This document shows positions 474-17,337 of a stretch of DNA of 64,000 nucleotides, piece by piece. Numbering within the stretch: position 1 is the stretch's first letter; each line of letters opens with the position of its first letter. The position numbers and the translations under genes are program-made. This stretch comes from Actinomycetes bacterium (GTDB lineage: Bacteria > Actinomycetota > Thermoleophilia > UBA2241): contig JAKPOQ010000004.1 of the NCBI GenBank assembly GCA_029547745.1, forward strand, positions 2,737-66,736, in the 5' to 3' direction. Under the pieces are notes generated by a model. The model was not told the origin of the DNA, searched no databases, and saw nothing but the letters and a program-made list of their open reading frames with translations.

Positions 474-967
474 GCGTCGGCCCTCCTCTGGTCGGCGCGG
501 CAGGCGGCGACGATCGCGCGCACATCGTCGGGCGTGACGCGCGTGTGGACGTCGTCGTCGACAAGTAGGGCGGGGCCTTGGTCGCACATGCCGATGCAGC
601 TTGCCCATTCGAGTGTCACCTGACCGTCGGCGGTCGTCTCGCCGAACTCCACGCCGAGCTCCCGGCGCAGTGCCTCGGCGACCGCGTCCTTGCCGGCGAA
701 GTCGCACGACAGGGTCCCGCAGAGGCGGATGACGTGGACGCCCTGGGGCCGGCTGCCCAGGAAGGCGTAGAACGAGGCCACGCTGTAGACCTCGACGGGG
801 TGGATGTCAAGGGCCTCGGCGACGACCTGCATCGTCTCGGCGTCGATCTCGTGGTAGCGGCGCTTGATGTCCTGGAGGATCGGGACGAGCGACGCGCGAC
901 CGGGGCCAAGCCTGTCGACCAGCCCTCCGATGTCGGCGCGCAGCGCCTCGGTCTGCGGTGCGGCCAT
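470..967 (-). CDS. NuoE-like thioredoxin-fold [2Fe-2S] subunit (HydC/HoxE type)
   Basis: The 165-aa product carries the NuoE 24-kDa subunit Cys pattern (LCGTLSC...ASCIGMCDQGPALLV). Its start forms an ATGA overlap with the REC gene stop at 967. It is a paralog of the gene at 10892..11443. Confidence 0.85.
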   Translation of the reverse strand: MAAPQTEALRADIGGLVDRLGPGRASLVPILQDIKRRYHEIDAETMQVVAEALDIHPVEVYSVASFYAFLGSRPQGVHVIRLCGTLSCDFAGKDAVAEALRRELGVEFGETTADGQVTLEWASCIGMCDQGPALLVDDDVHTRVTPDDVRAIVAACRADQRRADA

Positions 968-3041: not shown

Positions 3042-5092
3042 GACGACGTCATCTCCCGCAGGCTGAACGCGGCGTCGGTCTCCGTCTCGGAGCGGGGCAG
3101 CGAGATCGTGAAGGTCGTGAAGGTCGGGCCCTTGTCCGGGTCGGCGTTGGATTCGACGGCGATCTGGCCGCGATGCATCTTGACGATCCCGTGCGACACG
3201 GCCAGACCGAGGCCGGTGCCCCTGCCCACCTGCTTCGTCGTGAAGAAGGGACTGAACAGCTTGTCGAGGTGGTCGGGAGCGATGCCCGTGCCCTGGTCGG
3301 AGATGGTGATCTGCACCGTCTCGGCGGTACCGTCGAGGGTGATGGTTATCCGTCCGCCGTCGGGCATGGCGTGCTGGGCGTTGGCGAGCATGTTGGTGAT
3401 GACCTGGACGATCTGGTCGCCGTCGATCTCGGCGACGGGGTCGGCCATCTGGTCGTTGACGACGATCTCGACGTCCTCCTCGCGGGGGAACGTGCGCAAC
3501 ACATCTTTGACCAGCGCCCTGAGGTCGGTCGGCTGGCGGACGACGCGGCTCTGGCGGGCGAAGTTCAGGAGCCCCGAGATGATCTTCTTGCAACGATTGG
3601 CCTGATTGACGATCAGCTTCGCGTCGGCCGCCACCAGGGGGTCGTTGTCGCACTCCTCGAGCAGGAGGTTAGCGTGCAGGAGGAGGATGCCGAGCGGGTT
3701 GTTGACCTCGTGGGCGATACCGGCGGCGAGCTGTCCCATGCTGGCCAGGCTCTCGGACTTGACGAGAGCCTCCCTCGTGCTCTCGAGCGAATGGTTCGCC
3801 TCCTCGAGCTCGTCCACGGTGCGGCGCAGGCGTTCGACGGCGTAGGGGAGGCACATCTCGATCTCGGCGAGGCCCTGCCAGACGGCGATGGCGTGCTCGC
3901 GGCAGGTGTCGTAGCCGCAGGCCCCGCAGTCGAGGAGGTCTTTGGGCGACGACTTGCCCATGCGCTCGAGGATCGCTTGCAGCTCCTCCGCGGGCGGTAT
4001 GTGGTCGAGGCGCTGGTCGAAGACGGTGAAGGTGCGCGACAGGTCGAGGTCGGCGAACTCCGCCATTGCGGCCTCCCACGCGGCTTGGTCAAAGACGCGC
4101 TGCCGCTCGCGGGCGGCGCGACTGACTTCCGCACGCCGCGTGAAGACCGGCTCCTCGTGGGTGAATCCGGCGCCCATCACGCAACCGTGACAACACAGGA
4201 TGTCGAGCAGGCGCGCCTCGGTCGCGCCGCTCTTGAAGTCCTCTATTGCGGCGGCGAAGTCGTGTCGCCCGTCGGCGCTGACGATGTCGCCGGTGAGGAG
4301 GTCCTCGCTCAGCCCGGCCGCGCGCAGCAGACCGCGGGTGAGGGGGAAGAGGCCGCCGAGTGCGCCGTGCGGCGGGTCGAAATCGTCGTCCGCCGGTCGC
4401 GAGGCGAGGACGATCCCCTTGCGGGCGAACATCGCGCGCAGCTCGACGAAGGTGAGCGCGGCGTCGACGTCGCCCTCGAACTGCTCGTACGACGCCTCGC
4501 CCTTCTTCGCGATGCAGGGCCCGATGAAGACGATCCTGGCCTCGGGACCGAGCCGCCGGTGTAGGGCGCGGGCGAGGGCGATCATCGGCGACACGATCGG
4601 AGCGAGGTTGTCGACAAGGTCGGGCTGGTACTTGCGCACGTACGAGACGACGGCCGGGCAAGGCGTCGCCATGTAGCGGCCGTCGCGGTCCTCGGCGAGC
4701 AGCTCGGCGTAAGCGCGGGCGACGAGGTCGGCGCCGAACGCGACCTCGTGGACGGAGTCGAAGCCGAGGTCGCGCAGGGCCGCCACGAGGGTCGCCGTGT
4801 CGCAGTCGGTGAACTCGGCGGGGTGACTCGGGGCGACGATCGCAGCCACGTGGGTCGAGGAAGCGAGCAGGGCATCGGTGTCGGCGATGCCGCTGAGGAC
4901 TTCCTTGGCGTTCTGGCTACAGACGGTGACGCAGTTGCCGCACCCGATGCACCGCGTCTCGATGACGCTCGCCTGACCGTCACTGATGGCGATCGCCTTG
5001 ACTGGGCATTCGCGTACGCACGTGTAGCACATGCGGCACTTCTCGCGGATGGTAGTGACGAGCTGCGTGCTGGCGACCCTGTCTTCGTTCAT
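3038..5092 (-). CDS. Sensory [FeFe]-hydrogenase-like protein (HydS-type H-cluster domain plus 2x[4Fe-4S]) fused to a C-terminal histidine kinase
   Basis: The 684-aa product has N-terminal ferredoxin motifs (CRMCYTCVRECP, CIGCGNCVTVC). H-cluster motifs are ATPCPAVVSY (L1-like), IGPCIAKKGE (L2, MPCxxKxxE-like) and DILCCHGCVMGAG (L3-like). Then come HisKA (AHEVNNPLG) and HATPase_c (NMLANAQHAM, DQGTGI, GTGLGL). No PAS domain is recognisable. Confidence 0.85.
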   Translation of the reverse strand: MNEDRVASTQLVTTIREKCRMCYTCVRECPVKAIAISDGQASVIETRCIGCGNCVTVCSQNAKEVLSGIADTDALLASSTHVAAIVAPSHPAEFTDCDTATLVAALRDLGFDSVHEVAFGADLVARAYAELLAEDRDGRYMATPCPAVVSYVRKYQPDLVDNLAPIVSPMIALARALHRRLGPEARIVFIGPCIAKKGEASYEQFEGDVDAALTFVELRAMFARKGIVLASRPADDDFDPPHGALGGLFPLTRGLLRAAGLSEDLLTGDIVSADGRHDFAAAIEDFKSGATEARLLDILCCHGCVMGAGFTHEEPVFTRRAEVSRAARERQRVFDQAAWEAAMAEFADLDLSRTFTVFDQRLDHIPPAEELQAILERMGKSSPKDLLDCGACGYDTCREHAIAVWQGLAEIEMCLPYAVERLRRTVDELEEANHSLESTREALVKSESLASMGQLAAGIAHEVNNPLGILLLHANLLLEECDNDPLVAADAKLIVNQANRCKKIISGLLNFARQSRVVRQPTDLRALVKDVLRTFPREEDVEIVVNDQMADPVAEIDGDQIVQVITNMLANAQHAMPDGGRITITLDGTAETVQITISDQGTGIAPDHLDKLFSPFFTTKQVGRGTGLGLAVSHGIVKMHRGQIAVESNADPDKGPTFTTFTISLPRSETETDAAFSLREMTSS

Positions 5093-5107
5093 CTGTGAAG
5101 TGTCACC

Positions 5108-5518
5108 TCAGTCCGGCCGGTCGCCGAGCAGCTCGGCGACCTTGGCGAGCAGGGCGCCGCCGTCGATGGGCTTGTCGAAGTACGCGTCGACCCGCATCTT
5201 CTCCATGTCCTCGGCGGAGCGCGGACGGAAGTCGAGACCGAGGGCGCTGGACACGGACGTCGACATGATGATCGGCACCGCGGCGGTCTGCGGGTCGCCC
5301 TTCAGGGAGGCGGAGAAGGAGAATCCGGCGTCGAGACTGTCCATCATCAGGTCCGTGATGATGAGGTCGGGGACCTCGTCGGCGATGCGCGCCTGCGCTT
5401 CGGCAGGGTCGGCGGCCGTGGCGACCCTGTACCCCGCCTTCTCGAGGATGATGCGGTTGATCTCGAGGAAGTCGAAGTCGTCGTCGACGATGAGGATCAG
5501 TCTCTTCGTGTCACTCAC
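5108..5518 (-). CDS. Single-domain response regulator (REC only)
   Basis: The 136-aa product starts MSDTKRLILIVDDDFDFLE, with phospho-acceptor LIITDLMMD and conserved Lys DKP. There is no output domain. Confidence 0.85.
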   Translation of the reverse strand: MSDTKRLILIVDDDFDFLEINRIILEKAGYRVATAADPAEAQARIADEVPDLIITDLMMDSLDAGFSFSASLKGDPQTAAVPIIMSTSVSSALGLDFRPRSAEDMEKMRVDAYFDKPIDGGALLAKVAELLGDRPD

Positions 5519-5609
5519 GTTCGTCCACCGTCATCCGCTTGCCCGCCTTCGCCAGTATAGCCGGCGCCCGTCGCGCGCTGCGCCCGTACCGGCCGCTCGC
5601 GTTCCGGGG

Positions 5610-5643
5610 GCTGCGCGGGGCGCTCGCGAGCGCCCCGCGCAGC
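5610..5643. terminator. Perfect 34-bp GC-rich palindrome (GCTGCGCGGGGCGCTCGCGAGCGCCCCGCGCAGC) immediately downstream of hydA
   Basis: The sequence equals its own reverse complement. It sits in the gap between the hydA stop (5658) and the REC start (5518). There is no T-tract, as is usual in high-GC genomes. It is a candidate intrinsic terminator and/or operator. Confidence 0.5.
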
Positions 5644-5657
5644 CGTTCCGTCGCGTC

Positions 5658-7430
5658 TCAGACGCGTTCGTGTTCGAAGTAGTGGGTGTGCAGGAGGTCG
5701 TGGGAGAGCTCCCCACAGGGCGCTCCGAGGTACTCCTCATAGAGTGCGCGGACAGCGGGGTTCTCGTGCGACTTGCGCAGCTCGCGGCCCTCGTCCTCCT
5801 TGAAGATCGCCTGCATGCGCGCCTTGCGGACCTCGTCGGTCGTGAAGCGGGGCTGGCCGCCTCCGCCGATGCAACCGCCGGGGCAGGTCATGACCTCGAC
5901 GAAGTGGTACTCGGCTTCGCCGTCCCGTATCTGGTCGATGACCTTCTGGGCGTTGCCGAGGCCGTGGGCGACGGCGACCTTGAGGTCCACGCCCTCCAGG
6001 AACGACCACTCGCCCCTGGCGCCCTGGACCTTGATGCTCGCGGTCTTGACGCCCTCGAGGCCCTCGATCGGTTCGACGTGCAGGTCGGGGAACGGGAAGG
6101 GCGTCTCGGTGACGATCTCCCACACCGTGCGTAGCGCCGCCTCCATGACACCGCCGGTGTTGGCGAAGATGTCGGCCGCGCCGGTCGAGATGCCGAGCGG
6201 AGCGTCCATCTTCTCGTCGGGCAGCGCGCGGAAGTCGATGCCGGCCTGGGTGATCATCGCGCCCAGCTCACGTGTCGTGAGGACGATGTCGACGTCGCGG
6301 ACCCCGCTGGCCGTCATCTCGGGGCGCGCCGCCTCGAACTTCTTCGCCGTGCAGGGCATGACCGAAACGACGACCATGTCCTCGGGCCTCACGCCGATCT
6401 TGTCGGCGTAGTAGGTCTTGCTGATCGCCCCGAACATCTGCTGCGGGCTCTTGCAGGTGCTGAGGTTGGCGAGCATGTCGGGGTTGAAGTGCTCCATGTA
6501 GTTGATCCAGCCCGGGGAGCAGCTCGAGAACTGGGGCAGGACCACGGGCTCGCCGTCGACCAGCGCCCGCTTGAGGCGCTCGAGGAGCTCGGTGCCCTCT
6601 TCCATGATGGTAAGGTCCGCGGCGAAGTCCGTGTCGAAGACGGCATCGAACCCCATGCGCCGCAAGGCGGCGACCATCTTGCCCGTGACGAGTGTCCCCG
6701 GCGGGTAGCCGAAGCACTCGCCGAGCGCGGCGCGGATAGCCGGCGCCGTCTGCACGACGACGGTCTTCGTCGGGTCTTCAAGGGCCGCCCAGACCTCGTC
6801 GATCTGGTTGCGCTCGGTGATGGCGCCGACCGGGCACACGGCGGCGCACTGGCCGCACTGCACGCAGACGACGTCGTCGAGAGGAGAGCCGAAGGCCGGC
6901 CCGATGAGGGTGTCGAAGCCGCGGTCCTGGGCGAACAGCGCGCCGACGCCCTGGACCTCGTTGCATACCGTCACGCAACGCCGGCACGAGATGCACTTGC
7001 CGGTGTCGCGGACGAGCGCCGGTGTCGAGTCGTCGACGAAGCGCCGGGTCTTCTCGCCGGTGTAGGTGAGCTCACCGATGCCGAGCTCCTCCGCCAGCGT
7101 GCGGAGCTCGCAGTCGGCGCTGCGCGGGCAGACCTTGCAGTCGCCGTCGTGCTCGCTGAGGAGCAGCTCGACGACCGTCCGCCGTCCGGCGCGCACCTTG
7201 CCGGTGTTCGTCTTCACCACCATGCCCTCGGTTGCCGGCTGGGTGCACGACGCCACGAGGGTGCGCGCCCCCTCGACCTCGACCAGACAGACGCGGCAGG
7301 CGCCGATCGCCTGGACGTCCTCGAGGTAGCAGAGGGTGGGGATGTTCACGCCCGCCTGGCGGGCGGCTTGGAGAACCGAGGTCCCTTCGGGGACCTCGAC
7401 CTTGATGTCGTCGATGGTCAGTGTCGGCAT
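5658..7430 (-). CDS. hydA: [FeFe]-hydrogenase catalytic subunit HydA (M3-type: 2Fe-2S + His-ligated 4Fe-4S + 2x4Fe-4S + H-cluster domain)
   Basis: Start at MPTLTIDDIKVEV (residue 36 of track ORF 5658..7535) with GGAGCGG SD. The upstream 35 codons overlap hydB. H-cluster motifs are SSCSPGW, MPCTAKKFE and EVMTCPGGCIGGGGQP. A NuoG-like N-terminus (CYLEDVQAIGACRVCLVEV) is present. Confidence 0.9.
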   Translation of the reverse strand: MPTLTIDDIKVEVPEGTSVLQAARQAGVNIPTLCYLEDVQAIGACRVCLVEVEGARTLVASCTQPATEGMVVKTNTGKVRAGRRTVVELLLSEHDGDCKVCPRSADCELRTLAEELGIGELTYTGEKTRRFVDDSTPALVRDTGKCISCRRCVTVCNEVQGVGALFAQDRGFDTLIGPAFGSPLDDVVCVQCGQCAAVCPVGAITERNQIDEVWAALEDPTKTVVVQTAPAIRAALGECFGYPPGTLVTGKMVAALRRMGFDAVFDTDFAADLTIMEEGTELLERLKRALVDGEPVVLPQFSSCSPGWINYMEHFNPDMLANLSTCKSPQQMFGAISKTYYADKIGVRPEDMVVVSVMPCTAKKFEAARPEMTASGVRDVDIVLTTRELGAMITQAGIDFRALPDEKMDAPLGISTGAADIFANTGGVMEAALRTVWEIVTETPFPFPDLHVEPIEGLEGVKTASIKVQGARGEWSFLEGVDLKVAVAHGLGNAQKVIDQIRDGEAEYHFVEVMTCPGGCIGGGGQPRFTTDEVRKARMQAIFKEDEGRELRKSHENPAVRALYEEYLGAPCGELSHDLLHTHYFEHERV

Positions 7431-7440
7431 TGTCCGCTCC

Positions 7441-10400
7441 TCACCCTTCCGCGTGGTACTTGCCGTAGTCGCAGCGCAGACACCGTTTCGCCTCGGCCAG
7501 GGCCACCTCGGCGGCCCAGCCCAGTTCGACCTCATCGAAGCTCTTCACACGCTGCGCCACCGGGAGCTCCTCGATCGTGTGGCGCTCCACCGGCACCGGG
7601 TCGGCGTCCGGGTCGAAGGCCGTCGGCGGCTCGATGTCGCGCCGCCAGAACGCATGGTTCGCGCCCGTGAGGAGCTCGTCGATGCCGGCGGCGGCGCGCT
7701 CGCCGGCGCCGATCGCCTCGACCACCGAAGAGGGGCCGGTCATGGCGTCGCCGCCGGTGAAGACCCAGTCGACCGAGGTCCGCCCGGTCTTGCGGTCGGC
7801 GGCGAGGTAGCCCCGCCGGTCGAGCTCGATCGGCGTGCCGTCGAGGACGGCCGCGGCGTCGAGCTTCTGCCCGATGGCGGCGATCACCGTGTCGGCCTCG
7901 ACCACGAACGCAGGGTCGTGGCCGGCCACGGGCTGGCGCCGCCCGCTCCTGTCGTAGTCGCCAAGGGCCATGCGCGTGCAGCGCACGCCCGTCACGTTGC
8001 CCTCGGCGTCACGGAGGATCTCCTCCGGGGCCACGAGGGTCATGATCTCGATGCCCTCGAGGTCGGCGGCGTCGATCTCCTCGCTCCACGCCGGCATCTC
8101 GGCCCGCGTGCGACGGTAGAGGATCTTGACCGACTCGGCGCCGAGGCGGATGGCGGTCCGGGCGGCGTCGATGGCCGCGTTCCCGCCGCCGATGACCGCC
8201 ACGTTCGTGCCGACCCTGGCCGTGCCGTGGAGGTTGTAGTCCTTGAGGAAGGAGAGGCCGTCGTACACGCCGGGACCGTCCTCGCCGGGGACGCCGATGC
8301 CCATGCCTCGCGGGGCGCCGACGGCGACGAACACGGCTTCGTAGCCCTCGTCGCGGAGGCTCTGCAGCGTGAAGTCGCGGCCGAGCGCCTTCCCGTACTC
8401 GAAGTGCACGCCCATGCCCTCGATCATCGCGACCTCGCGCGCGAGCTCCTTGCGTGGCAGGCGGTAGGCCGGGATGGCCTGGACCAGCATGCCGCCGGCC
8501 TTGGGCTCCGCCTCGAAGACGACCGGCTTGTATCCGAGCCGGGCGAGGAAGTAGGCGGCGGAAAGGCCGGCGGGTCCGGAGCCGACGATCGCCACCTTGC
8601 GGCGGGCGTTCTCGGCGTTCTCGCGGATCTCCGGGAGCTGCGGCGTCGTCTCCTGCTCGACCATGAAGCGCTTGACCTGACGGATCGCCAGCGGGCCGTC
8701 GAGGGTCGCGCGCATGCACTTGCGCTCGCACGGATGGAAGCACACGCGAGCGCAGATGCTCGCCAGCGGGTTCCGCTCGCGATGGAACCTGAGCGCCTCG
8801 TCGTACCTGCCCTCGGCCACAAGGCTCACGAACCCGGGGATGTTGACGTTCGCCGGGCACGCGTTGGAACAGCGGGCTTTGAACAGGCTTGAGCAGACGC
8901 CGGCCTCGCAGTACTTGTCCTTGATGTGGGCCTCGTACTCGTGGCGGAAGTGGCGGATGGTCGAGAGGACCGGGTTCGGCGCCGTCTGCCCAAGGCCGCA
9001 GAGGGCCGTCTGGCTGATGGTCTCGCCGAGCGCGATGAGGCGCTCGATGTCGCCTTCTTCACCCTCGCCGTTGCAGATGCGTTCCACGATCTCGAGCATC
9101 CGCTTGGTGCCCACGCGGCAGGGCGTGCATTTGCCGCAGCTCTCCTCTTGGGTGAACTCGAGGAAGAAGCGGGCGATGTCGACCATGCAGGTGTCCTCGT
9201 CCATGACGATGACGCCGCCGGAGCCCATGATGGCGCCGAGCTCCTGCAACGTGGCGTAGTCGACCGGCACGTTGAGGTGCTCACGGGGGATGCAGCCGCC
9301 GGAGGGCCCGCCGAGCTGCGCCGCTTTGTAGGTCTTGCCGTTGGGGATCCCGCCGCCGACGTCGTAGATGAGCTCGCCGAGCTGCATGCCGATCGGCACT
9401 TCGACGAGGCCGGTGTGCTGGACGTTGCCCCCGAGGGCGAAGACCTTGGTCCCCTTGCTCTTCTCGGTGCCGGTGCTCGCGTACCACTCGGCGCCCTTGA
9501 GGATGATCGGGGCGATGTTGGCGAAGGTCTCGACGTTGTTGAGCACACTGGGCTTGCCCCAGAGGCCCGAGACGGCCGGGAAGGGAGGCCGCGGGCGAGG
9601 CTCACCGCGATGGCCCTCGATGGAGGTCATCAGCGCGGTCTCCTCGCCGCAGACGAAGGCGCCCGAGCCCATGCGGATCTCGAGGTCGAAGTCGAAGCCG
9701 CTCCCGAGGATGTCCTTGCCGAGCAGCCCGTACTCGCGCGCCTGGTTCAGGGCGTGCTCGAGACGCTCGACGGCAAGCGGATACTCGGCGCGCACATACA
9801 CGTACCCCTGGTGCGCGCCGATGGCGTAGGCGCCGATGATCATGCCCTCGATGAGGGAGTGCGGGTCGCCTTCGAGGACGGAGCGGTCCATGAACGCGCC
9901 GGGGTCGCCTTCGTCGGCGTTGCACAACATGTACTTGACGTCGCTGCCCTGCTGCTGGGCGAACCGCCACTTCATGCCAGTGGGAAAGCCGGCGCCGCCG
10001 CGACCGCGCAGGCCGCTGGCCAGCACCTCCTCGACGACCTGTTCGGGGGTCATCTCGGTGACGACCTTGGCGAGGGCTTGGTACCCGTCGCGGGCGATGT
10101 ACTCGCCGATGTCGAGGGGGTCGATGATCCCGCAGTTCCGCAGCACGATCTTGACCTGGCGGTTGAAGAACGGGATGTCCGTCATCTCCGCCTGGGTCTT
10201 GTCGGTACCGGGAGCGTGGCTCACGAGGCGCTCGACGACGCGGCCCTTGAGCAGGTGCTCCTCGACGATCTCGGGGACGTCCTCGACGTGGACGTTCTGG
10301 TAGAAGACCCCGTCCGGGTAGACCAGGGCCACCGGGCCACGCACGCAGGGGCCGAGACAGCCGGTCTCCACGACGTCGACCTCGCCGGCCAGGTCTCTCT

Positions 10401-10506
10401 TCTCGAGCTCGGCGCGTACGGCCTGGCTCACCTCGAGCGACCCGGAGGCGATGCAGCCGCCGCCCGTGCAGACCAGGAAATGGGTTCTCGATGCAGTCAT
10501 AGTCAT
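7441..10506 (-). CDS. hydB: HydB-like NuoF flavoprotein with N-terminal thioredoxin-like [2Fe-2S] domain, fused to a C-terminal GltD/SudA-like NAD(P)H-dependent FAD oxidoreductase domain
   Basis: 1021 aa. NuoF motifs: GLRGRGGAGFPTGMKW, CNADEGDPGAF, CGKCTPCRVG. GltD-like module: 2x[4Fe-4S] (CEAGVCSS...CSNACP; CARVCFHPCERKC), FAD dinucleotide fold VAIVGSGPAGLSAAYFL and a second GG motif VAVIGGGNAAIDAA. Confidence 0.85.
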   Translation of the reverse strand: MTMTASRTHFLVCTGGGCIASGSLEVSQAVRAELEKRDLAGEVDVVETGCLGPCVRGPVALVYPDGVFYQNVHVEDVPEIVEEHLLKGRVVERLVSHAPGTDKTQAEMTDIPFFNRQVKIVLRNCGIIDPLDIGEYIARDGYQALAKVVTEMTPEQVVEEVLASGLRGRGGAGFPTGMKWRFAQQQGSDVKYMLCNADEGDPGAFMDRSVLEGDPHSLIEGMIIGAYAIGAHQGYVYVRAEYPLAVERLEHALNQAREYGLLGKDILGSGFDFDLEIRMGSGAFVCGEETALMTSIEGHRGEPRPRPPFPAVSGLWGKPSVLNNVETFANIAPIILKGAEWYASTGTEKSKGTKVFALGGNVQHTGLVEVPIGMQLGELIYDVGGGIPNGKTYKAAQLGGPSGGCIPREHLNVPVDYATLQELGAIMGSGGVIVMDEDTCMVDIARFFLEFTQEESCGKCTPCRVGTKRMLEIVERICNGEGEEGDIERLIALGETISQTALCGLGQTAPNPVLSTIRHFRHEYEAHIKDKYCEAGVCSSLFKARCSNACPANVNIPGFVSLVAEGRYDEALRFHRERNPLASICARVCFHPCERKCMRATLDGPLAIRQVKRFMVEQETTPQLPEIRENAENARRKVAIVGSGPAGLSAAYFLARLGYKPVVFEAEPKAGGMLVQAIPAYRLPRKELAREVAMIEGMGVHFEYGKALGRDFTLQSLRDEGYEAVFVAVGAPRGMGIGVPGEDGPGVYDGLSFLKDYNLHGTARVGTNVAVIGGGNAAIDAARTAIRLGAESVKILYRRTRAEMPAWSEEIDAADLEGIEIMTLVAPEEILRDAEGNVTGVRCTRMALGDYDRSGRRQPVAGHDPAFVVEADTVIAAIGQKLDAAAVLDGTPIELDRRGYLAADRKTGRTSVDWVFTGGDAMTGPSSVVEAIGAGERAAAGIDELLTGANHAFWRRDIEPPTAFDPDADPVPVERHTIEELPVAQRVKSFDEVELGWAAEVALAEAKRCLRCDYGKYHAEG

Positions 10507-10517
10507 GTCACCCGCTC

Positions 10518-10889
10518 TCAGGCTTCGATCAGGTAGGCGGTCACGGGCTCGCCTCCCAAGAGGTGCTTCTGAACGATCTCGCGGACCTTGGCCTCATCCA
10601 GGAGGCCGTAGCGGTACATCGTGCCGTCGGCATGGGTCACGGTCGCCATGGGCTCCTCTTCACAGAGCCCGGCGCAGCCGGTCTGGTGCAAGCTCACGTC
10701 GCTGACGCCCGCTTCTCCCATCTCGGCCATGAACGAGGCGAGCACGCCACGGGCGCCGGCGGCGATGCCGCACGTGCCCATGTGGACGGTCACCTGGGTC
10801 TCCTTGCGCCCTTGACGCACGTTGAGGCCGGCCTTGGCCGCCTCGGCGAGCGCCTTGAGCTGGTCGGGGCTGGTGATCTTCGCGGCCAT
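10518..10889 (-). CDS. Thioredoxin-like [2Fe-2S] ferredoxin (HndB-like small subunit)
   Basis: The 123-aa product starts at MAAKITSPDQ, in the last third of track ORF 10518..11408 (the earlier part is R-rich overlap with hydC). Cys pattern: HMGTCGIAAG...GCAGLCEEEP. Confidence 0.75.
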   Translation of the reverse strand: MAAKITSPDQLKALAEAAKAGLNVRQGRKETQVTVHMGTCGIAAGARGVLASFMAEMGEAGVSDVSLHQTGCAGLCEEEPMATVTHADGTMYRYGLLDEAKVREIVQKHLLGGEPVTAYLIEA

Positions 10890-10891
10890 CG

Positions 10892-11443
10892 TCAGGCGCT
10901 CCTTTCGGCCAACGCCGGCTCGCCGGCGTACTGGGCGAGGATCTCGTTGACGCGTTTCGGCTTGACGCGATGGTGGACGTCCTCGTCGACCATGATCACC
11001 GGGGCCAACCCGCAGGCGCCGAAGCAGCGCCCGATGGCGAGCGAGAACCGGCGATCGTCGGTGGTCCCCCCGATGTCGATGTCGAGTTCTTTCTTGAGGG
11101 CGTCCAACACCTGCACGCCGCCTCTGACGTAGCACGCCGTGCCGAGGCAGACGCGGACGAGGTGCTCGCCGCGCGGCACCGTGGTGAAGAACGAGTAGAA
11201 GCCGACGACGCCGGCGACCTCGCTGTACGGCTTGCCCAGCCGGCGCGCGATGTGCTTGAGGGCGACCTCCGGCAGGTAGCCGAAGATGCCCTGGGCGAGT
11301 TGCAGGACGGGGATGAGGGCGCCGGGCTTGCCACGATAGTCCTCGATCACCGCGTCGAGGCGTTCGAGGAGCTCTTCCTCGGTCGGCTCCTCGGCGCAGC
11401 ACTCGCACCGCTTGACGTCTTCGTTCATTCGGCTCTCCTTCAC
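10892..11443 (-). CDS. hydC: HydC, NuoE-like [2Fe-2S] subunit
   Basis: 183 aa; NuoE motifs VCLGTACYVRG and GRCFGACGLAPVIMV. Confidence 0.85.
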   Translation of the reverse strand: MKESRMNEDVKRCECCAEEPTEEELLERLDAVIEDYRGKPGALIPVLQLAQGIFGYLPEVALKHIARRLGKPYSEVAGVVGFYSFFTTVPRGEHLVRVCLGTACYVRGGVQVLDALKKELDIDIGGTTDDRRFSLAIGRCFGACGLAPVIMVDEDVHHRVKPKRVNEILAQYAGEPALAERSA

Positions 11444-11480
11444 TCCGTTCGCTTGTTCTCTGCCGCGCAGGTTCTCTGCG

Positions 11481-11975
11481 TCAGTCCAGTGATCGTTGAA
11501 AGGCGCGGAGGGTGTCGAGCCGGGCGGGCAACGTCTCCCGTCCCAGCACGACGAGTTCTCCGTCCTCGCGCAGTTCGACGCTGAAGGCCACCTCCGGGTT
11601 GGTCACCGTCATCGTCAGGATGCTCAGGGCGACGTCGCCGGCCGGTGGCCGGTCGACGTTGGTGAGGCTCATGCGCGCCTCGACGGCTGTCCCACCGAGG
11701 CGCTCCGAGGAGCTGACGCTGAGTCCGCCGCCGGCGGCCTCGGCCTCCTGCCTGAGCAGGCTGAGGCCGAGGCCGGTCTTCTTGCCCGGCTTGGTGGTGT
11801 AGAAGGGGTCCAGGGCGGCGTCGGGCGGAACCGGCAAGCCGGGGCCGTCGTCCTCGACCGTGAGGGCGAGCAGATCGGCCCGCCGGTCGACGGCGAGCGT
11901 CACCGCGACACGCGTCGCCCCGGCGCGCACCGAGTTCTCGAGAAGCTCGAGGAGGTAGAGCGAGAGGTCATGCAT
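11481..11975 (-). CDS. Small GHKL/HATPase_c-like ATPase (anti-sigma-factor/Ser-kinase-like) conserved in [FeFe]-hydrogenase operons
   Basis: 164 aa. N-box-like ENSVRAG, G-box DDGPGLP and GLGLSL. The start overlaps the PHP gene stop by 8 nt. Confidence 0.65.
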   Translation of the reverse strand: MHDLSLYLLELLENSVRAGATRVAVTLAVDRRADLLALTVEDDGPGLPVPPDAALDPFYTTKPGKKTGLGLSLLRQEAEAAGGGLSVSSSERLGGTAVEARMSLTNVDRPPAGDVALSILTMTVTNPEVAFSVELREDGELVVLGRETLPARLDTLRAFQRSLD

Positions 11976-12708
11976 CGGCCACGCCCCTGCCTCCGTCGGC
12001 GCGCAGCGCCAGGGTCAGCTCGGCGAACGTCGCCTCGGCGACCGTCAGTCGCGTGCCGGCCGCCCCGAGGTCACTGAGGTAGTGGCCGTCCGACGAGCGT
12101 ACGACCGGCAGCCCGAAGGCCCGGAAGCGCGCCTCGGCCTCGCTCCCTGAAGCGACATGGCGCGACACCTCGACGGCGTCGAACCTTGCGTCGCGCGGGA
12201 AGACGCCGAGCTGGCTGATGACGCTGAACGACGGACGGTCCACATGCGCCGCCACGGCGAGGCCGCCGTGACGGTGGACGAGGTCCACGCAGGCGGTGAC
12301 GCCGAGCGGCGTCGCCGTCGCCAGGGCGCGCGTCTCGCGGGCGACGATGTCGCCGTGCGCGTCGAGCACGTGCTGTTCGCCGAAGAACTCGATGTAGCCG
12401 TCTCCGGCTTCGGGGAGCAGCGCCGTCACCTCTGCGCCGGCCGTCTCGGCGGCCGCGGCGTGGGGGAAGAGGCCGAGGACGTGGCACTCCTCGACGCTCG
12501 TGATCTCCATGCCGGCGACCACGGTGAGGCGCGCGTCGGCCGCCGCCTGGACGGCGGCGACGTTGCGCGCGCTGTTGTGGTCGCAGATCGCGATCATCGC
12601 CAGGCCCTCAGCCAGCGCTCCGGCCACGATGGCGGGCGGCGTCATCGCGTCGTCCGCGCAGGGCGAGAGCGCGGTGTGCACGTGCAGGTCTGCCAGGATG
12701 TCGATCAC
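11968..12708 (-). CDS. PHP (polymerase/histidinol-phosphatase) domain metal-dependent phosphoesterase
   Basis: 246 aa. Starts MIDILADLHVHTALSP (PHP motif I), then ICDHNS (motif II) and further His/Asp ligands. Confidence 0.75.
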   Translation of the reverse strand: MIDILADLHVHTALSPCADDAMTPPAIVAGALAEGLAMIAICDHNSARNVAAVQAAADARLTVVAGMEITSVEECHVLGLFPHAAAAETAGAEVTALLPEAGDGYIEFFGEQHVLDAHGDIVARETRALATATPLGVTACVDLVHRHGGLAVAAHVDRPSFSVISQLGVFPRDARFDAVEVSRHVASGSEAEARFRAFGLPVVRSSDGHYLSDLGAAGTRLTVAEATFAELTLALRADGGRGVADA

Positions 12709-12760
12709 GCATCAGGTCCTTCGTGGCGCGTCGGGTCCTTCATCGAGCCTCCTCGCGGTG

Positions 12761-13111
12761 TCAGGCGCCGCATCCTCTCACGCCGCGGGTGTAGAGCTGG
12801 CCGACGACCTCGAAGGTGTCGTCGTCGGCCCCGTACAGCGCGAGGCCCTCCTCGGTCGCCTTGGCGACGACGTCCTCGTCCGGTCGTCGCCCGCCGCTGA
12901 ACACCACGGCGGCGATGTCGGCGTGGCCGGCCACGGCGACGACGTTGAGGTGGACCTGAAGGGTCACCAGCAGTCCGCCGGCGGGGGCGTGCGCGAGGAC
13001 ATCGCTCAGGAGGTCGGACGCGTACCCCCTGGTGACCTCGGCGGTGGCGTCGCCGGCGCCGGCGTTCAGCTCGGTCAAGCCGAGCTCGGCGACGATCTCC
13101 TGGAGCTTCAT
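12761..13111 (-). CDS. DRTGG-domain protein
   Basis: The real start is MKLQEIVAELG (residue 38 of track ORF 12761..13222), an ATGA overlap with the upstream gene stop. About 116 aa. It resembles the C-terminal domain of the rex fusion at 14697..15746. Confidence 0.6.
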   Translation of the reverse strand: MKLQEIVAELGLTELNAGAGDATAEVTRGYASDLLSDVLAHAPAGGLLVTLQVHLNVVAVAGHADIAAVVFSGGRRPDEDVVAKATEEGLALYGADDDTFEVVGQLYTRGVRGCGA

Positions 13112-14694
13112 CGCACCCTCTCTTCGTCGGTTCGTGCGCCGCTCTGCGATGCCTGGGCGGCGTAGGGGCAGAGGTCGCGCGCGGCGCGGCCGGTGATGAC
13201 GTCTTCGGCGAAGGCCGCGCATGTGGGCGCGCCGCAGACGGTGCAGTCTTTGCCGGGCAGACCGTCGGCCACGCGTTCGAGCTCGGTGAGCTTGCGGATG
13301 GCGGTCGCCATGTCGGGGTCGAGCCGGATGCCGGGCCGGGGCTGGTACGCCAGCCTCCGCTCATGCGCGCGCCCGCCGGCGGCCACATCGGCCGCCGCCC
13401 AGCGCCACGCCGACAACGAGGGCTCGTTCTGCAGGAGAGGCGACCCGAGACAGCCGCCGTCGCACAGGTACGGTTCGACGACGGGGACGTCTGTGAGCAG
13501 GCCGTTCTCGAGCTGGTCGAGGACGGCGACCACCCGGCCCGCGCCGGTGACGACGAGCACGTCGTCCTCGTCGGTGGGCCGGCTGCCGCTCGGCGCCGGC
13601 GCGGGAGGCCCTTGACCGGCGGCGACGAGCGGGGCGAGCAGCTTGCGCAGGGCGCCGGGCGTCGTGATGGCGCCCTGTGCCGTGGGGCGCTGCGCGAGCA
13701 GGGCGCTGCGCTGGCCGGGGCACGAGACCACGAACACGGCGTCAGCGTCGGCGAGGTCGAGCTGCGCGGCCTCGAGCGGCGACGCCAGCGGCGCCAGGTG
13801 AGGGAGGAGCGCTGGGAAGCGGAGCTCGATCAGCGCGACGACGCCCGGGCAGACGGGCGAAACGACGGGCGACGGGCCCACCGGCGCCGCGGCGCGCTCG
13901 CTCACGGCAGCGCGCAAGGCGGCTTCATAGCCGTGCGTCACGACGACGTCCACCGCTCCCAAAGCGCGGAGCGCGGCGAGGGCCGCCCCGGGCCCGCCGA
14001 ACGGGTAGTAGTCGACGAGCACGCCCGGCGGCACGACGACCGTGGCGCCGTCGAGGGACGGCGGGGATGCGGAGCCGGCGACCGTCAGCGCCCGGGGCGT
14101 GCACGCCGCGATACAGGCCGCGCAGTCGACGCAGAGATGCCCGAGGACGGTGGGCGCCCCGTCGCGCACCCGCACGGCTCCCGTCGGGCAGGCGAGGACG
14201 CAGCGCCGGCAGTCGCGGCAGAGCGCGGCGCGCGCGACGAGCGACGTCGGTCGCTCGTCGCGCGCGCCGCGCTCTGCGCGCAGCAGGATGGTGAAGCTGA
14301 CCGTCGTGCCCTTGCCGACCTCGGACGTGACGCGCAGGCGGTCGCTGTTGCGGCGGATGTTGGGCAGGCCGAGGCCCGCGCCGAAACCCAGAGCGCGGGC
14401 CTCGGGCGGCGCCGTCGAAAAACCCTCGCGCATGGCCGCCTCGATGTCCGGGATGCCGGGGCCGCCGTCGCTGACGCTCACGTCGAGCTGGCCTTCGTCC
14501 ACGGCCGCTTCAAGAACACCACCTTGAGCGGCATGGATGACGACGTTCATCTCGGCCTCGTACGCGGCGATCACGGCGCGACGGACGGTCTCACTTTCGG
14601 CGCCGATCCGCTTGAGATGCTGCTTGAGGGCGCGCGATGCGGCGCCGGCGCCGGTGAAGTCGCGGGCCTGGATGTCGAAGCGCAGGGTCTCCAC
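13108..14694 (-). CDS. Fusion protein: GHKL/HATPase_c-like domain + 2x[4Fe-4S] ferredoxin domain + C-terminal RnfB-type FeS (PF04060-like) domain
   Basis: This is the 3' 529 codons of track ORF 13108..15375; the 5' part of that ORF is an R-rich shadow of rex. The putative GTG start overlaps the rex stop. Motifs: NVVIHAAQGG, DGGPGIPD and GLGLPNI (ATPase); CRDCRRCVLACP and CVDCAACIAAC (ferredoxin); CDGGC...LPGKDCTVCGAPTCAAFAEDV (RnfB N-terminal-type FeS). Confidence 0.65.
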   Translation of the reverse strand: METLRFDIQARDFTGAGAASRALKQHLKRIGAESETVRRAVIAAYEAEMNVVIHAAQGGVLEAAVDEGQLDVSVSDGGPGIPDIEAAMREGFSTAPPEARALGFGAGLGLPNIRRNSDRLRVTSEVGKGTTVSFTILLRAERGARDERPTSLVARAALCRDCRRCVLACPTGAVRVRDGAPTVLGHLCVDCAACIAACTPRALTVAGSASPPSLDGATVVVPPGVLVDYYPFGGPGAALAALRALGAVDVVVTHGYEAALRAAVSERAAAPVGPSPVVSPVCPGVVALIELRFPALLPHLAPLASPLEAAQLDLADADAVFVVSCPGQRSALLAQRPTAQGAITTPGALRKLLAPLVAAGQGPPAPAPSGSRPTDEDDVLVVTGAGRVVAVLDQLENGLLTDVPVVEPYLCDGGCLGSPLLQNEPSLSAWRWAAADVAAGGRAHERRLAYQPRPGIRLDPDMATAIRKLTELERVADGLPGKDCTVCGAPTCAAFAEDVITGRAARDLCPYAAQASQSGARTDEERVR

Positions 14695-14696
14695 CG

Positions 14697-15746
14697 TCAG
14701 TCGCGTCCGTTCCCGGAGAGGTGCTGGTAGATCCGCCCGCAGGTCTCGAACACACCGTCGGGAGAGACCATGAGCAGCGTCCCCGTCCCGTGCGCCAGGG
14801 CGACGAGCTCGTCGTCCGGTTCGACACCGTTCACGAAGCAGATACCGGGCACGTCCATGAGTTCGGCGACGCGCAACATCTGTACGCTGGCCAGGTTGCT
14901 GACGAGGAGGGTCTTGTCGGACGCCTCGTTGAGCAGGTCGCTGACGCGGTCCCCGGCGTAGATCTTCGTGATCCCGGTACCGCCGGGTGCGCCAGGGGTC
15001 ACGATGCGCGCCCCGATGAGGCGGGCAAGGTCTTCGAGCTTCATCGCCCTCCTCGCAAGCAGCGTCTCGAGTTGCTTCACGATCGGTCCGATCTCGCTGC
15101 CGCGGTTGTCGCCGGGTGCCTCCACCTCGGCCTCGCGGCGCCGCGAGAAGAACGCCGCCGATTCCAGGGCGGCGGTCAGGTCCATATACTCCACGAAGAT
15201 CTCGCGCGGAAGGTCGAGCGGGACGGGGGCGAAGCTGATGATGCTCTTCACGCCGGCGCGTACGAGCGTCTCGGCGCTGGCCTGTGCGGCCCTTGCGGGT
15301 ACCGTCAGCACGGCGATCTCGATCCCGAGGTTGCGCACGAGTTCCTCCATGCGTGCGGCGTCCATGACGCGGCACGATTGCACGGTGGTCCCCACCAGTC
15401 GTGGGTCTGTGTCGAACGCGACGACGATAGCGGCTGAGGGGCTGGCCGCCGCGAGGTGCTGGAGCACTGCCCGGCCGAGGTTGCCGACCCCGACCAGGGC
15501 GACCTCCTGGCGGACGGCGCCGTCGAGGAAGCTGCTGAGGCTCTCGATGCAGAGCTCCACGTCGTAACCCTTCTTCGGGCTGCCCGAGTAGCCGATCGCC
15601 ATCAGGTCGCGCCGCACTTGCGCGGCGCTGACCACGGCGTGGCGCGCGAGTTCGTGTGAGTAGATGTTGCGGACGCCCTGGTCGCGCAGCGACACGAGGA
15701 GACGTCGATAGCGGCTGAGGCGGGCGACGGTCTTCCGTGAGACCAC
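14697..15746 (-). CDS. rex: Rex redox-sensing (NADH/NAD+) transcriptional repressor fused to a C-terminal DRTGG domain
   Basis: 349 aa with GTG start. The Rex wHTH (TVARLSRYRRLL...IYSHELA...VSAAQVRRDL) and Rossmann GxGxxG (LVGVGNLGRAVL) end around residue 215. An additional ~115-aa domain (MKLEDLARLIG...YAGDRVSDLL...) follows with no intervening stop. Confidence 0.8.
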   Translation of the reverse strand: MVSRKTVARLSRYRRLLVSLRDQGVRNIYSHELARHAVVSAAQVRRDLMAIGYSGSPKKGYDVELCIESLSSFLDGAVRQEVALVGVGNLGRAVLQHLAAASPSAAIVVAFDTDPRLVGTTVQSCRVMDAARMEELVRNLGIEIAVLTVPARAAQASAETLVRAGVKSIISFAPVPLDLPREIFVEYMDLTAALESAAFFSRRREAEVEAPGDNRGSEIGPIVKQLETLLARRAMKLEDLARLIGARIVTPGAPGGTGITKIYAGDRVSDLLNEASDKTLLVSNLASVQMLRVAELMDVPGICFVNGVEPDDELVALAHGTGTLLMVSPDGVFETCGRIYQHLSGNGRD

Positions 15747-15792
15747 TGACTTGACTCCTGCAATGGGTGTGTTAGCCGTTACAGAACGAACG

Positions 15793-15810
15793 CTGTGAAA
15801 ACTGTAACGA
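15793..15810. promoter_or_regulatory. Candidate degenerate Rex operator (CTGTGAAAACTGTAACGA vs consensus TTGTGAANNNNTTCACAA), nested in an inverted repeat GTTACAG-N17-CTGTAAC (15778..15808)
   Basis: Located 47-64 nt upstream of the rex GTG start, with 14 of 18 positions matching the consensus outside the spacer. Coordinates were read from the printed sequence. Confidence 0.3.
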
Positions 15811-16062
15811 TTCTCCCCCTGAGAGACGCTGCTGTCAACGCGGGCGACTTGGACAGGATGTCCAAGGGATGTGGCATTGTCGTGTCCTCGGTATGTGTGA
15901 TCGTCCGTGGCCCCATGGTTCCGCTCTGGTAAAGTGTCGACGAGTCAGAGTGGAGGGGAGAACGGAGTCGCATCGTTGCCTCGGCGCGATGCCGTCAAGG
16001 TGACGTTCGCCGACCGGCTTCTCCGCTTGACACGGTACCGCTGTCTCTCTGGAGGTTGCCCG

Positions 16063-17337
16063 ATGTCAGACAAGCCCGCCTACATGCAGCATATGCCGCA
16101 CTTCGTGGCTCCCGCTGCGCCGATCACGATCGACCATGCCGAGGGCAGCTGGATCTACGCGACCGACGGCAGCAAATGGCTCGACTTCGTGATGGGCATC
16201 GCCGTCGTCAACACCGGCCACTGCCACCCGAAAGTCGTCGCGGCGGTGCGCGAGCAGAGCACCAAGGTATCTCACGCGCAGATGAACATGTACCGGTCAC
16301 AGCCGATGCTCGACCTGACCGAGAAGCTCATGGACATCCTGCCCGAGGGTCTCGACGAGGTCATGTACGCGAACTCCGGCGCCGAGGCCGTGGAGAACGC
16401 GGTCAAGCTGGCCAAGCAGGCGACGCGTCGCCCCGGCGTCATCGCTTTCCAGAACGCGTTCCACGGCCGCACGCACCTGACGATGGCGCTCACCGACTCT
16501 GCCCTCCACTATCGCGGGCACTTCGAGCCGCTCGTCGGCAGCATCTACCATGCGAAGTACTGCTACCCGTTCCGCACGCCGGCCAGCGAAGACCCGACGC
16601 AGTACGCGCTCGACGACGTGCGCCGCGTGCTCGGGTCCGAGATCTACGGCGACGACGTCGCCGCCATCATCGTCGAGCCCATCCAGGGCGAGGGCGGCTT
16701 CGTCATCCCCACCGCCGAGTTCATGCAGGGCCTGCGCGCCATCGCCGACGAGATCGGCGCCTGCCTGATCATCGACGAGATCCAAGCCGGCATGGGCCGC
16801 ACCGGCAAGTGGTTCTGCTTCGAGCACTACGGCGTCAAGCCAGACATCATGACCATCGCCAAGGGCATCGCCTCGGGTTACCCGCTGTCGGCTATCGCCG
16901 CTCCCAAGGCCCTTTGGGACAAGTGCGTGCCCGGTTCCATGGGCGGCACGTACGGAGGTAACGCCGTGTCCTGCGCCGCCGGCGTCGCCACGATCGACGC
17001 CATGCGCGACGAGGGCATGCTCGAGAACGCCGCGAGGCAGGGCGAAAAGCTCATGAAGTTCTTCCTCGAGAAGCAGAAGCAGTACCCGGCCATCGGCGAC
17101 GTGCGCGGCAAGGGCCTCATGTTCGCCATCGAGTGCGTCCAGCCGGGCGGCAAGGAGCCGAACGCCGCCGCGGCCAAGGCGTTCATCGCCGAGTGCATCA
17201 AGCGCAAGGTGATCGTCATGGGCGCCAGCCGGTTCGGCAACTGCGTCCGCTTCCTGCCGGCGATCAACATCAACGACGCCGACCTCGATCACGCGTTGGG
17301 CGTGTTCGACGAGGCGGCCAAGGCCGCGTTCGCCTGA
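16063..17337 (+). CDS. Class-III PLP-dependent aminotransferase (GabT/ArgD family)
   Basis: Start MSDKPAYMQ (residue 53 of the track ORF) with GGAGG SD. PLP lysine context TIAKGIASG. Typical fold motifs include DEIQAGMGRTGK. Confidence 0.85.
   Translation: MSDKPAYMQHMPHFVAPAAPITIDHAEGSWIYATDGSKWLDFVMGIAVVNTGHCHPKVVAAVREQSTKVSHAQMNMYRSQPMLDLTEKLMDILPEGLDEVMYANSGAEAVENAVKLAKQATRRPGVIAFQNAFHGRTHLTMALTDSALHYRGHFEPLVGSIYHAKYCYPFRTPASEDPTQYALDDVRRVLGSEIYGDDVAAIIVEPIQGEGGFVIPTAEFMQGLRAIADEIGACLIIDEIQAGMGRTGKWFCFEHYGVKPDIMTIAKGIASGYPLSAIAAPKALWDKCVPGSMGGTYGGNAVSCAAGVATIDAMRDEGMLENAARQGEKLMKFFLEKQKQYPAIGDVRGKGLMFAIECVQPGGKEPNAAAAKAFIAECIKRKVIVMGASRFGNCVRFLPAININDADLDHALGVFDEAAKAAFA

Follow-up and report, generated by a model that had tools for sequence, protein, structure and literature searches.

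Introduction

Group D [FeFe]-hydrogenases have been labelled "putative sensory" since 2020. The M2e-type enzyme TamHydS of Thermoanaerobacter mathranii is sensor-like in its low turnover, high H2 affinity and CO tolerance (PMC8163306), and a 2026 study of it describes its partners as still to be identified and calls this point critical (PMC13104023). The redox regulator Rex and the sensory hydrogenase HydS have each been proposed as regulators of bifurcating hydrogenases, with no link drawn between the two (PMC10084766). We found in the literature no tested function for the HATPase, DRTGG or PHP genes that are linked to hydABC, and their only mention there is a "histidine kinase-like ATPase" beside TamHydS, upstream of HydABC (PMC8163306). 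Here we describe an operon in a 64,000-nucleotide stretch of DNA (the window; G+C content ~70%) from the metagenome-assembled genome of a Thermoleophilia (Actinomycetota) bacterium (assembly GCA_029547745.1, contig JAKPOQ010000004.1, positions 2,737 to 66,736), in which a Rex protein fused to a DRTGG domain and a SpoIIAB-like kinase fused to a HydS module are encoded ahead of the hydABC genes. The components are of known kinds (Rex, group D-like HydS, SpoIIAB-like kinase, DRTGG and PHP); in the literature that we searched, which was mostly open-access so that an earlier mention is possible, we found no description of the DRTGG/PHP cassette, of either fusion, of the Rex-DRTGG architecture or of this wiring.

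Results

Rex carries a C-terminal DRTGG domain

The first gene of the operon, rex-DRTGG (14697..15746, minus strand), encodes 349 amino acids in one open reading frame (ORF). Residues 1–206 (15129..15746, minus strand) form a Rex module with a winged-helix DNA-binding domain (PF06971 at 52 bits, gathering score 27) and an NAD(H) Rossmann domain (PF02629 at 67 bits), and the Rex identity is given by NCBIfam NF003995 (188 bits, 1e-55, cutoff 126). Residues G86, G88, G91, F111 and D112, which include the GxGxxG motif and the Asp after the second strand, are invariant in 28 sequences, and a Foldseek search with an AlphaFold2 (AF2) model of the fusion returned Rex structures at ranks 1–39 (E=1e-17). 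Behind a linker of ~28 residues, a DRTGG domain of ~110 residues (DRTGG-A; residues 235–345, 14712..15044, minus strand) is joined to the Rex C-terminus.

A fusion of this kind could be an assembly or sequencing artefact in which a stop codon was lost or a frameshift introduced, and frameshifts of the nanopore type do occur among the relatives, in four Actinomycetota loci (L002, L027, L045 and L056) and in three database proteins (P0129, P0164 and P0176) that we rejected as distant Rex-DRTGG fusions since they are frameshifted copies. Even in those four loci, however, the Rex C-terminus and DRTGG-A are held in one frame. The same architecture of 346–349 residues was found in more than 120 independent clusters (90% identity) drawn from NCBI, JGI, ENA and Logan, whose members are 70–100% identical to the query over 95–100% of its length; the protein of the window is itself identical to P0001, an NCBI entry from a Thermoleophilia metagenome-assembled genome (MAG). 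P0121, the only intact fused representative listed in a library at 50% identity, is 55% identical and likewise fused, and the fusion is present in all 30 Actinomycetota loci recovered with gene 2 (below). An artefact is so improbable in the face of these observations that we regard it as excluded; the fusion is real and lineage-specific. The initial annotation, which had described Rex with an extra C-terminal DRTGG domain in the same 349-residue ORF and had asked whether such a protein occurs elsewhere, was right about the first and has a positive answer to the second. The DRTGG-A part contains as many invariant columns as the Rex part, and the aligned sequences indicate that the fusion is under strong purifying selection.

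Four further candidates for distant Rex-DRTGG fusions (P0157, P0165, P0189 and P0219) were rejected since they have a different C-terminal extension, which Pfam identifies as a receiver domain in the first three and to which it assigns no domain in P0219. Tandem double-Rex proteins (P0143 and P0192) also occur in public metagenomes, and we found no description in the literature of either Rex with a CheY-like receiver or tandem double Rex. The existence of Rex-receiver fusions (P0165 and P0189) implies that the Rex C-terminus can host a phospho-acceptor domain.

Gene 2 joins a SpoIIAB-like kinase to a group D-like HydS module

Gene 2 (13108..14694, minus strand) starts with a GTG codon 2 nucleotides (nt) past the rex stop, and its product has two parts. 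The first (residues 1–140; 14275..14694, minus strand) is a GHKL kinase domain that matches PF13581 (HATPase_c_2) at 43 bits (gathering score 27.4), has SpoIIAB as its best sequence match in the PDB (2e-8) and is aligned with SpoIIAB by Foldseek with TM-scores of 0.82–0.85 and a root-mean-square deviation (rmsd) of 2.0–2.5 Å. Most residues of its N, G1 and G2 boxes are at least 95% conserved in 81 sequences. SpoIIAB is an anti-sigma factor and Ser kinase, and the idea in the initial annotation of a kinase or anti-sigma-like protein is borne out by SpoIIAB being the nearest solved relative in both sequence and fold.

The second part (residues 146–528; 13108..14259, minus strand) is a group D-like HydS module with Fer4, PF02906 and PF04060 matches. 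It has two N-terminal [4Fe-4S] motifs of the form Cx2Cx2Cx3C (C159/162/165/169 and C188/191/194/198), the H-cluster cysteines C282, C325, C411 and C415, and a C-terminal cluster motif (C484-x2-C487-x4-C492-x16-C509); all these cysteines are invariant in 32 sequences, and the four of the H-cluster are kept in at least 44 of 46 kinase-fused and 26 of 27 unfused HydS proteins. The Pfam match of the H-domain (Fe_hyd_lg_C, PF02906) is partial at 35 bits, and the domain scores 147–159 bits against M2e proteins of Bacillota, 68 bits against the HydS-histidine kinase (HydS-HK) of the window (below) and 38 bits against HydA. The L1 motif, SPVCPGV, has Val at the C299 position and so no proton-relay Cys, and no PAS domain was found in gene 2 by Pfam search. 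The top Foldseek matches of the AF2 model (pLDDT, the predicted local distance difference test, 83; pTM, the predicted TM-score, 0.72) are [FeFe]-hydrogenases over ~390 columns, and the pTM value suggests that the kinase and HydS modules pack in a defined way.

Gene 2 is therefore, as far as its sequence tells, a SpoIIAB-like kinase joined to a HydS module that has every part of the group D (M2e-type) architecture and so is a putative sensory [FeFe]-hydrogenase. The initial annotation had a GHKL module joined to three FeS clusters; its HATPase_c_2, two Fer4 and PF04060 domains stand, while the cluster count was too low (there are at least four sites) and the H-cluster domain had been overlooked. 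Such kinase-HydS fusions gave 727 matches at E≤1e-10, which JGI names [quoted passage not shown].

A putative Rex-type operator at the promoter of the operon

The only promoter-like site in 4900..16100 is a sigma-70-like promoter, TTGACA-17 nt-GAGAAT (15810..15838, minus strand); the orthologous Thermoleophilia upstream regions have a TTGACA −35 hexamer too and, in most cases, a −10-like hexamer. Directly after the −10 hexamer lies a putative Rex-type operator, CGTTACAGTTTTCACA (15794..15809, minus strand). A search of the window for the canonical Rex box (TTGTGAA-N4-TTCACAA) with up to three mismatches found none; the operator was missed because it has one mismatch more than this, and it was found by footprinting 35 upstream regions. 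Orthologous promoters have the same box in the same position after the −10 hexamer with only 1–3 mismatches, near-perfect boxes are present in relatives (e.g., TTGTGAATCGGTTCACAG), and a position weight matrix has the operator as its sole match in the 64-kb window (26.8 bits). The box, (C/T)GTGA(C/A)-N4-TTCACA, opens a 35-nt block directly after the −10 hexamer that is conserved in 19 promoters, and the Rex site placed by the initial annotation at 15778..15810 corresponds to this block. Rex-type operators were found in the Thermoleophilia and Myxococcota promoters examined and in several from other phyla, including some ahead of cassettes with no adjacent rex (L016, L021, L048, L036 and L060, from Planctomycetota, Bacillota and Spirochaetia). 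The hydrogenase operon is probably autoregulated by Rex through this predicted operator.

A second conserved element of the promoter or 5' untranslated region (5'-UTR), GCGTT...GT(A/C)ACG (15777..15793, minus strand), is invariant in 19 of 19 Thermoleophilia promoters. Its palindromes differ by sublineage (CGTT-N8-AACG or GTTAC-N4-GTAAC), and a role as a second operator or as a structure in the 5'-UTR is possible. An RNA hairpin, looked for by eye without a folding tool, was rejected as its arms are not conserved between sublineages.

The cassette recurs across phyla with alternative fusions

A scan with one genome per species yielded 80 loci, in which ORFs were called and searched with the proteins of the window. 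The order DRTGG-A, kinase, HydS, DRTGG-B, PHP, small GHKL, hydC-fdx-hydB-hydA recurs across these 80 loci, which belong to at least 12 phylum-level lineages (Actinomycetota, Planctomycetota, Hydrogenedentota, Spirochaetota, Verrucomicrobiota, Myxococcota, Bacillota, Atribacterota, Sumerlaeota, Ignavibacteriales, Acidobacteriota and one Deltaproteobacteria MAG). A DRTGG gene lies directly upstream of the SpoIIAB-like kinase in 80 of 80; wherever the contig is long enough, HydS, DRTGG-B, PHP and the small GHKL ATPase come next, and hydC, fdx, hydB and hydA are usually behind the small GHKL gene. That HATPase, DRTGG and PHP genes recur beside hydABC, as had been stated in the initial annotation, is borne out.

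Three types of fusion were found among these loci. Rex is joined to DRTGG-A in Actinomycetota; DRTGG-A is joined to the kinase in three Bacillota loci (L055, L058 and L079), where rex is in every case the gene just upstream; and 46 sequences from Actinomycetota, Planctomycetota, Hydrogenedentota, Spirochaetota, Verrucomicrobiota and Myxococcota have the kinase and HydS in one protein. In one Myxococcota MAG (L044) rex adjoins an unfused DRTGG-A gene, which looks like a pre-fusion state. By Rosetta-stone logic, the three alternative fusions place Rex, DRTGG-A, kinase and HydS on a single inferred pathway, and the conserved synteny and alternative fusions fit a partner-switching-style device.

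The cassette might instead act mainly on the enzyme, controlling or assembling HydABC post-translationally as an ATP-dependent regulator, chaperone or redox on/off switch, with the fusion to Rex being incidental, a merger of adjacent genes in one lineage that matters little for what Rex does. Consistent with this, the Bacillota loci have hydC before the small GHKL gene, which there has the ferredoxin gene on its other side; in a Planctomycetota MAG (L016, 12550-13728) the small GHKL ATPase and HydC share one ORF; and of the loci that have no fused Rex, rex lies in the 10-kb flanks of only six (in five of them beside the cassette), yet all these loci retain the cassette. An incidental fusion is, however, hard to square with its retention in 30 of 30 Actinomycetota loci and with its apparent purifying selection, the DRTGG-A part being as rich in invariant columns as Rex; moreover, the alternative partner of DRTGG-A is the kinase and not a hydrogenase subunit, and Rex-type operators are found in the Thermoleophilia, Myxococcota and several other-phylum promoters. 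We therefore consider control at the level of the enzyme unlikely as the main role of the cassette.

The DRTGG domains share an invariant serine

The stand-alone DRTGG-B protein (gene 3; 116 residues, 12761..13111, minus strand) is encoded directly after gene 2, with which it has an ATGA overlap. By Pfam alone neither DRTGG assignment of the initial annotation would stand, as DRTGG-A scores 13.1 bits and DRTGG-B 20.9 bits (3e-4) against PF07085, whose gathering score is 25.2; P0121 scores 20.3 bits. The assignment is upheld by positional orthologues that exceed the gathering score (42.2, 34.5 and 30.7 bits, those of Bacillota reaching 42 bits), by the similarity of DRTGG-A and DRTGG-B to each other (33% identity, E=6e-15) and by fold. 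The AF2 model of the fusion (pLDDT 73) matches the DRTGG domain of the Clostridium perfringens CBS-pyrophosphatase structure 3L2B (3L2B_A) in Foldseek (E=1.5e-5, rmsd 2.2 Å, 117 columns), with only one Rossmann-fold (GAPDH) chain above it among the non-Rex matches. A profile of 17 DRTGG sequences also matches 2IOJ (1.2e-3) and 3L2B (4.6e-3) in the PDB. The modelled domain thus has the DRTGG fold of 3L2B and 2IOJ. Designed "Pizza" repeat proteins at the top of the profile search were set aside as spurious, the meaningful matches being the lower ones (1KO7, 2IOJ and 3L2B), and a phmmer search of PDB sequences with DRTGG-B gave nothing useful.

The Ser of a DxxSD(L/V)L motif is invariant in 80 of 80 DRTGG-A and 74 of 74 DRTGG-B sequences. 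It corresponds to Ser269 of the fusion (codon 14940..14942) and to Ser36 of DRTGG-B, whose invariant residues are S36, T50, Q52, H54 and N56. In the AF2 model this Ser stands at the start of a helix, after a strand, which would be a typical phosphate-binding position. DRTGG-B has 871 homologues; the 120 matches listed are stand-alone proteins of 115–124 residues, among which no further fusions or extra Pfam domains were seen and whose names are "hypothetical" or, once, "serine kinase".

PHP phosphoesterase and small GHKL ATPase

The next two genes encode a PHP-family metal-dependent phosphoesterase (11968..12708, minus strand; PF02811 and PF13263) and a small stand-alone GHKL ATPase (164 residues; 11481..11975, minus strand) that overlap by 8 nt, and Pfam agrees with the earlier assignment of both. 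The HxH, DH and DGH motifs of PHP are visible in the sequence, and its nearest solved relatives are of the TrpH/YciV type (7UG9, 3E0F and 2YB1). The small ATPase matches PF02518 at 3.8e-15, lacks HisKA, and its G1 box, F-box-like PFxTTK motif and G2 box are conserved in 67 sequences. PHP and the small ATPase form a single ORF in a Vicinamibacterales MAG (L077, 5917-7995); since this fusion and that of the small ATPase with HydC in L016 (above) have one clean instance each, sequencing error is possible for both.

Structural genes and neighbouring features

The genes from rex-DRTGG through hydA share the minus strand and either overlap or follow closely on one another, with gaps of at most 52 nt throughout, so that the gene order and overlaps given in the initial annotation are confirmed. 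The structural block (5658..11443, minus strand; intergenic gaps 2–37 nt) contains hydC (10892..11443, minus strand; NuoE-like, 2Fe-2S_thioredx at 159 bits), a 2Fe-2S ferredoxin gene (10518..10889, minus strand; Pfam and NCBIfam), hydB-GltD (7441..10506, minus strand; NuoF-like, Complex1_51K and NADH_4Fe-4S) and hydA (5658..7430, minus strand; PF02906 at 322 bits and Fe_hyd_SSU). An H-cluster HydA, a NuoF-like HydB and a NuoE-like HydC are thus encoded together, as in HydABC-type (group A3) hydrogenases. The HydA L1 motif, SSCSPGW, was at one point suspected to be abnormal, which was dropped when xxSCSPGW was found in 37 of 37 neighbouring HydA proteins with a detectable L1, Bacillota included.

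Atypical for a HydABC-type enzyme is the C-terminus of HydB, a GltD/NfnB-like module of ~490 residues (Fer4_20 and Pyr_redox_2). NuoF-like and GltD-like parts occur together in 44 related loci, in 32 of them as one intact ORF, from at least six phylum-level lineages, and the HydA encoded beside hydB-GltD retains its H-cluster domain. In the Stn transhydrogenase GltD is on a NuoG-like subunit (PMC10482914), whereas here it is on the NuoF-like HydB. The fusion hints at an NADP(H)-linked variant of HydABC.

At its tail the operon has genes for a stand-alone receiver (5108..5518, minus strand), a second sensory-type hydrogenase fused to HisKA-HATPase (HydS-HK; 3038..5092, minus strand) that has full Fe_hyd_lg_C and PF04060 matches and no PAS domain, and a receiver-HisKA-HATPase hybrid (1797..3041, minus strand). 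Gene 2 and the hydrogenase at 3038..5092 are thus two putative H2-sensor kinases of different kinds in one locus. At the edge of the window (3..967, minus strand) lie a further NuoE-like gene (470..967) and the beginning of a further NuoF-like one, which suggest another NuoEF-type complex downstream. Elsewhere in the window there are a tRNA gene (34097..34169, plus strand) and a match to the c-di-GMP-I-GGC riboswitch aptamer (RF03167; 39303..39382, minus strand; 66.3 bits, gathering score 59); an Rfam search at gathering cutoffs found no known RNA family in the cassette region.

Discussion

The gene order, the domain identities, the fusions and the conservation of residues and operator are direct observations, and their best explanation, in our view, is a partner-switching-like relay that would pass a HydS signal to Rex, where it would be combined with NADH sensing. 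The relay would start with HydS, which would sense H2 or the redox state of its own clusters and signal this to the kinase domain joined to it. The kinase would bind DRTGG-A of dimeric Rex and probably phosphorylate it, with Ser269 as the candidate site, and this would alter the occupancy by Rex of an operator that overlaps the transcription start of the operon. The PHP esterase would reset the switch, and DRTGG-B and the small GHKL ATPase would belong to another branch, parallel or competing, that might have the HydABC enzyme itself as its target. One promoter would in this way merge NADH/NAD+ sensing by the Rex Rossmann domain with H2 or redox sensing by HydS. We infer the interactions, the phosphorylation, the direction of regulation and the responsiveness to H2, and on the relay as a whole we are evenly divided. 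Since gene 2 has a full HydS module, its likely input is H2 or the redox state of the H-cluster and not simply the ferredoxin pool, and since Rex is fused to DRTGG-A and a Rex-type operator lies at the operon's own promoter, the clearest predicted output is transcription through Rex. Of the earlier suggestion that the cassette tunes hydrogenase activity to the NADH/ferredoxin state in partner-switching style, the style is retained, but tuning of activity and a plain ferredoxin input are less supported.

A number of observations weigh against this relay. The operator CGTTACAGTTTTCACA differs from TTGTGAA-N4-TTCACAA at four positions. The kinase-fused HydS clade has deletions in the H-domain and, in 42 of 46 sequences, Gln at the K358 position, where the unfused clade has K in 23 of 27; in group A enzymes this Lys anchors a CN ligand. 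With Gln there, it is uncertain whether the [2Fe] subcluster is bound and, in consequence, whether H2 is sensed. At M353 the 46 kinase-fused sequences have V (26) or A (15) and the 27 unfused ones T (20) or S (5), and replacement of M353 by Ser/Thr is well conserved in M2e (PMC8163306). We accordingly file the HydS of gene 2 as a divergent sister or derived branch and not as a typical M2e, and the kinase-fused clade may sense redox state and not H2, in the manner of a Nar1-like protein with [4Fe-4S] clusters only. In TamHydS the C-terminal cluster gave no response to H2, and a redox change of this cluster was ruled out as the signal (PMC13104023). Pfam and NCBIfam find neither a STAS nor a PP2C domain in the cassette proteins, so the classical partner-switching components are missing; the nearest relatives of PHP are nucleotide or RNA phosphoesterases and not protein phosphatases; and we found no report of DRTGG phosphorylation in those of the searched papers that mention DRTGG.

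Some of these points would also suit signalling without phosphorylation, in which the DRTGG domains are small-molecule-binding or dimerisation modules (for, e.g., an adenine nucleotide or dinucleoside polyphosphate), the GHKL proteins are ATP-dependent binding switches and PHP hydrolyses a nucleotide signal. Rex would then gain a metabolite or oligomerisation input, and HydS would modulate sequestration and not kinase activity; SpoIIAB itself sequesters sigma F. The one context in which DRTGG has been solved agrees with such a scheme and speaks against the phosphorylation relay, as DRTGG-DRTGG' contacts form the dimer there within a nucleotide-regulated insert, and only those CBS-pyrophosphatases that contain DRTGG respond to diadenosine polyphosphates (bioRxiv 10.1101/2020.04.07.028951); in SpxR, DRTGG is treated as a predicted ligand-binding domain (PMC9888711). 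The nucleotide phosphoesterases 7UG9, 2YB1 and 3E0F nearest to PHP, and the phosphate-binding-like position of the invariant Ser at a helix start in the AF2 model, would fit as well. Against it, the kinase domain keeps the strictly conserved ATP site of SpoIIAB, a Ser kinase, the two GHKL and two DRTGG proteins fit kinase-substrate pairs, and we saw neither a nucleotide cyclase nor a nucleotide synthetase in the conserved gene set of the cassette, the copies in the window all having other Pfam assignments. We hold this alternative to be rather doubtful.

In its most specific form the phosphorylation relay would have DRTGG in place of STAS as the substrate or antagonist of the kinase and PHP in place of PP2C as the enzyme that resets it, and the cassette would be the missing signal path of group D enzymes, which in Thermoleophilia ends on Rex; this we put forward tentatively, as possible though somewhat doubtful. 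The fusions nominate signalling partners, namely the SpoIIAB-like kinase, which is joined to HydS in six or more phylum-level lineages, the DRTGG domain, whose fusion partner is the kinase in some Bacillota and Rex in Thermoleophilia, and Rex itself, and they reduce group D signalling to a testable set of one kinase, one serine and one operator. If the relay is correct, it would give a function to the DRTGG domain, add a new chemistry to partner switching and provide a means by which anaerobes match their H2 output to the H2 level as well as to the NADH load, which would bear on syntrophy, on H2 cycling in gut and sediment, and on the engineering of fermentative H2 or ethanol yields.

Comparison with described systems

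Gene 2 resembles TamHydS (PMC8163306, PMC13104023) in its two N-terminal [4Fe-4S] motifs, four-Cys H-domain and Cx2Cx4Cx16C motif, in having no Cys before the L1 cluster ligand (C299 in CpI) and no PAS domain, and in its place upstream of HydABC and adjoining a GHKL ATPase. It differs from TamHydS in the GHKL kinase that is covalently attached to its N-terminus, in Gln at K358 and Val/Ala at M353, and in its H-domain deletions. The group C HydS proteins (TmHydS, Ruminococcus albus HydS and HfsB) and the [NiFe] HoxBC-HoxJ-HoxA system share with it the principle of a slow hydrogenase module that acts with a kinase or phosphatase on hydrogenase genes (PMC8163306, PMC11837493, PMC10084766), but they use PAS domains with PP2C or histidine kinases where the window has a SpoIIAB-like kinase, DRTGG and PHP.

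With SpoIIAB-SpoIIAA-SpoIIE and RsbW-RsbV the cassette has in common a kinase whose best match is SpoIIAB, a small alpha/beta domain with an invariant Ser and a phosphoesterase in the operon; unlike them it has DRTGG and not STAS, PHP and not PP2C, no sigma factor, and Rex as a fused output.

Canonical Rex proteins (T-Rex 1XCB, B-Rex 2VT3, RSP 3WG9 and Thermotoga maritima Rex 5ZZ5) have the same winged helix, GxGxxG/FD Rossmann domain and C-terminal helix. Also in common is a hydrogenase operon that opens with an inverted repeat of the Rex type, here a putative operator. Canonical Rex proteins are ~210 residues long, whereas the protein of the window has ~145 more (linker and DRTGG), and the operator of the window has a degenerate left half-site with the second conserved element behind it. 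Among proteins with comparable extensions, SpxR (DRTGG-CBS-HotDog; PMC9888711) is also a DNA-binding regulator with a DRTGG domain but is not a Rex, and the Rex-receiver proteins P0165 and P0189 also have a C-terminal domain on Rex, which in their case is a CheY-like receiver and not DRTGG.

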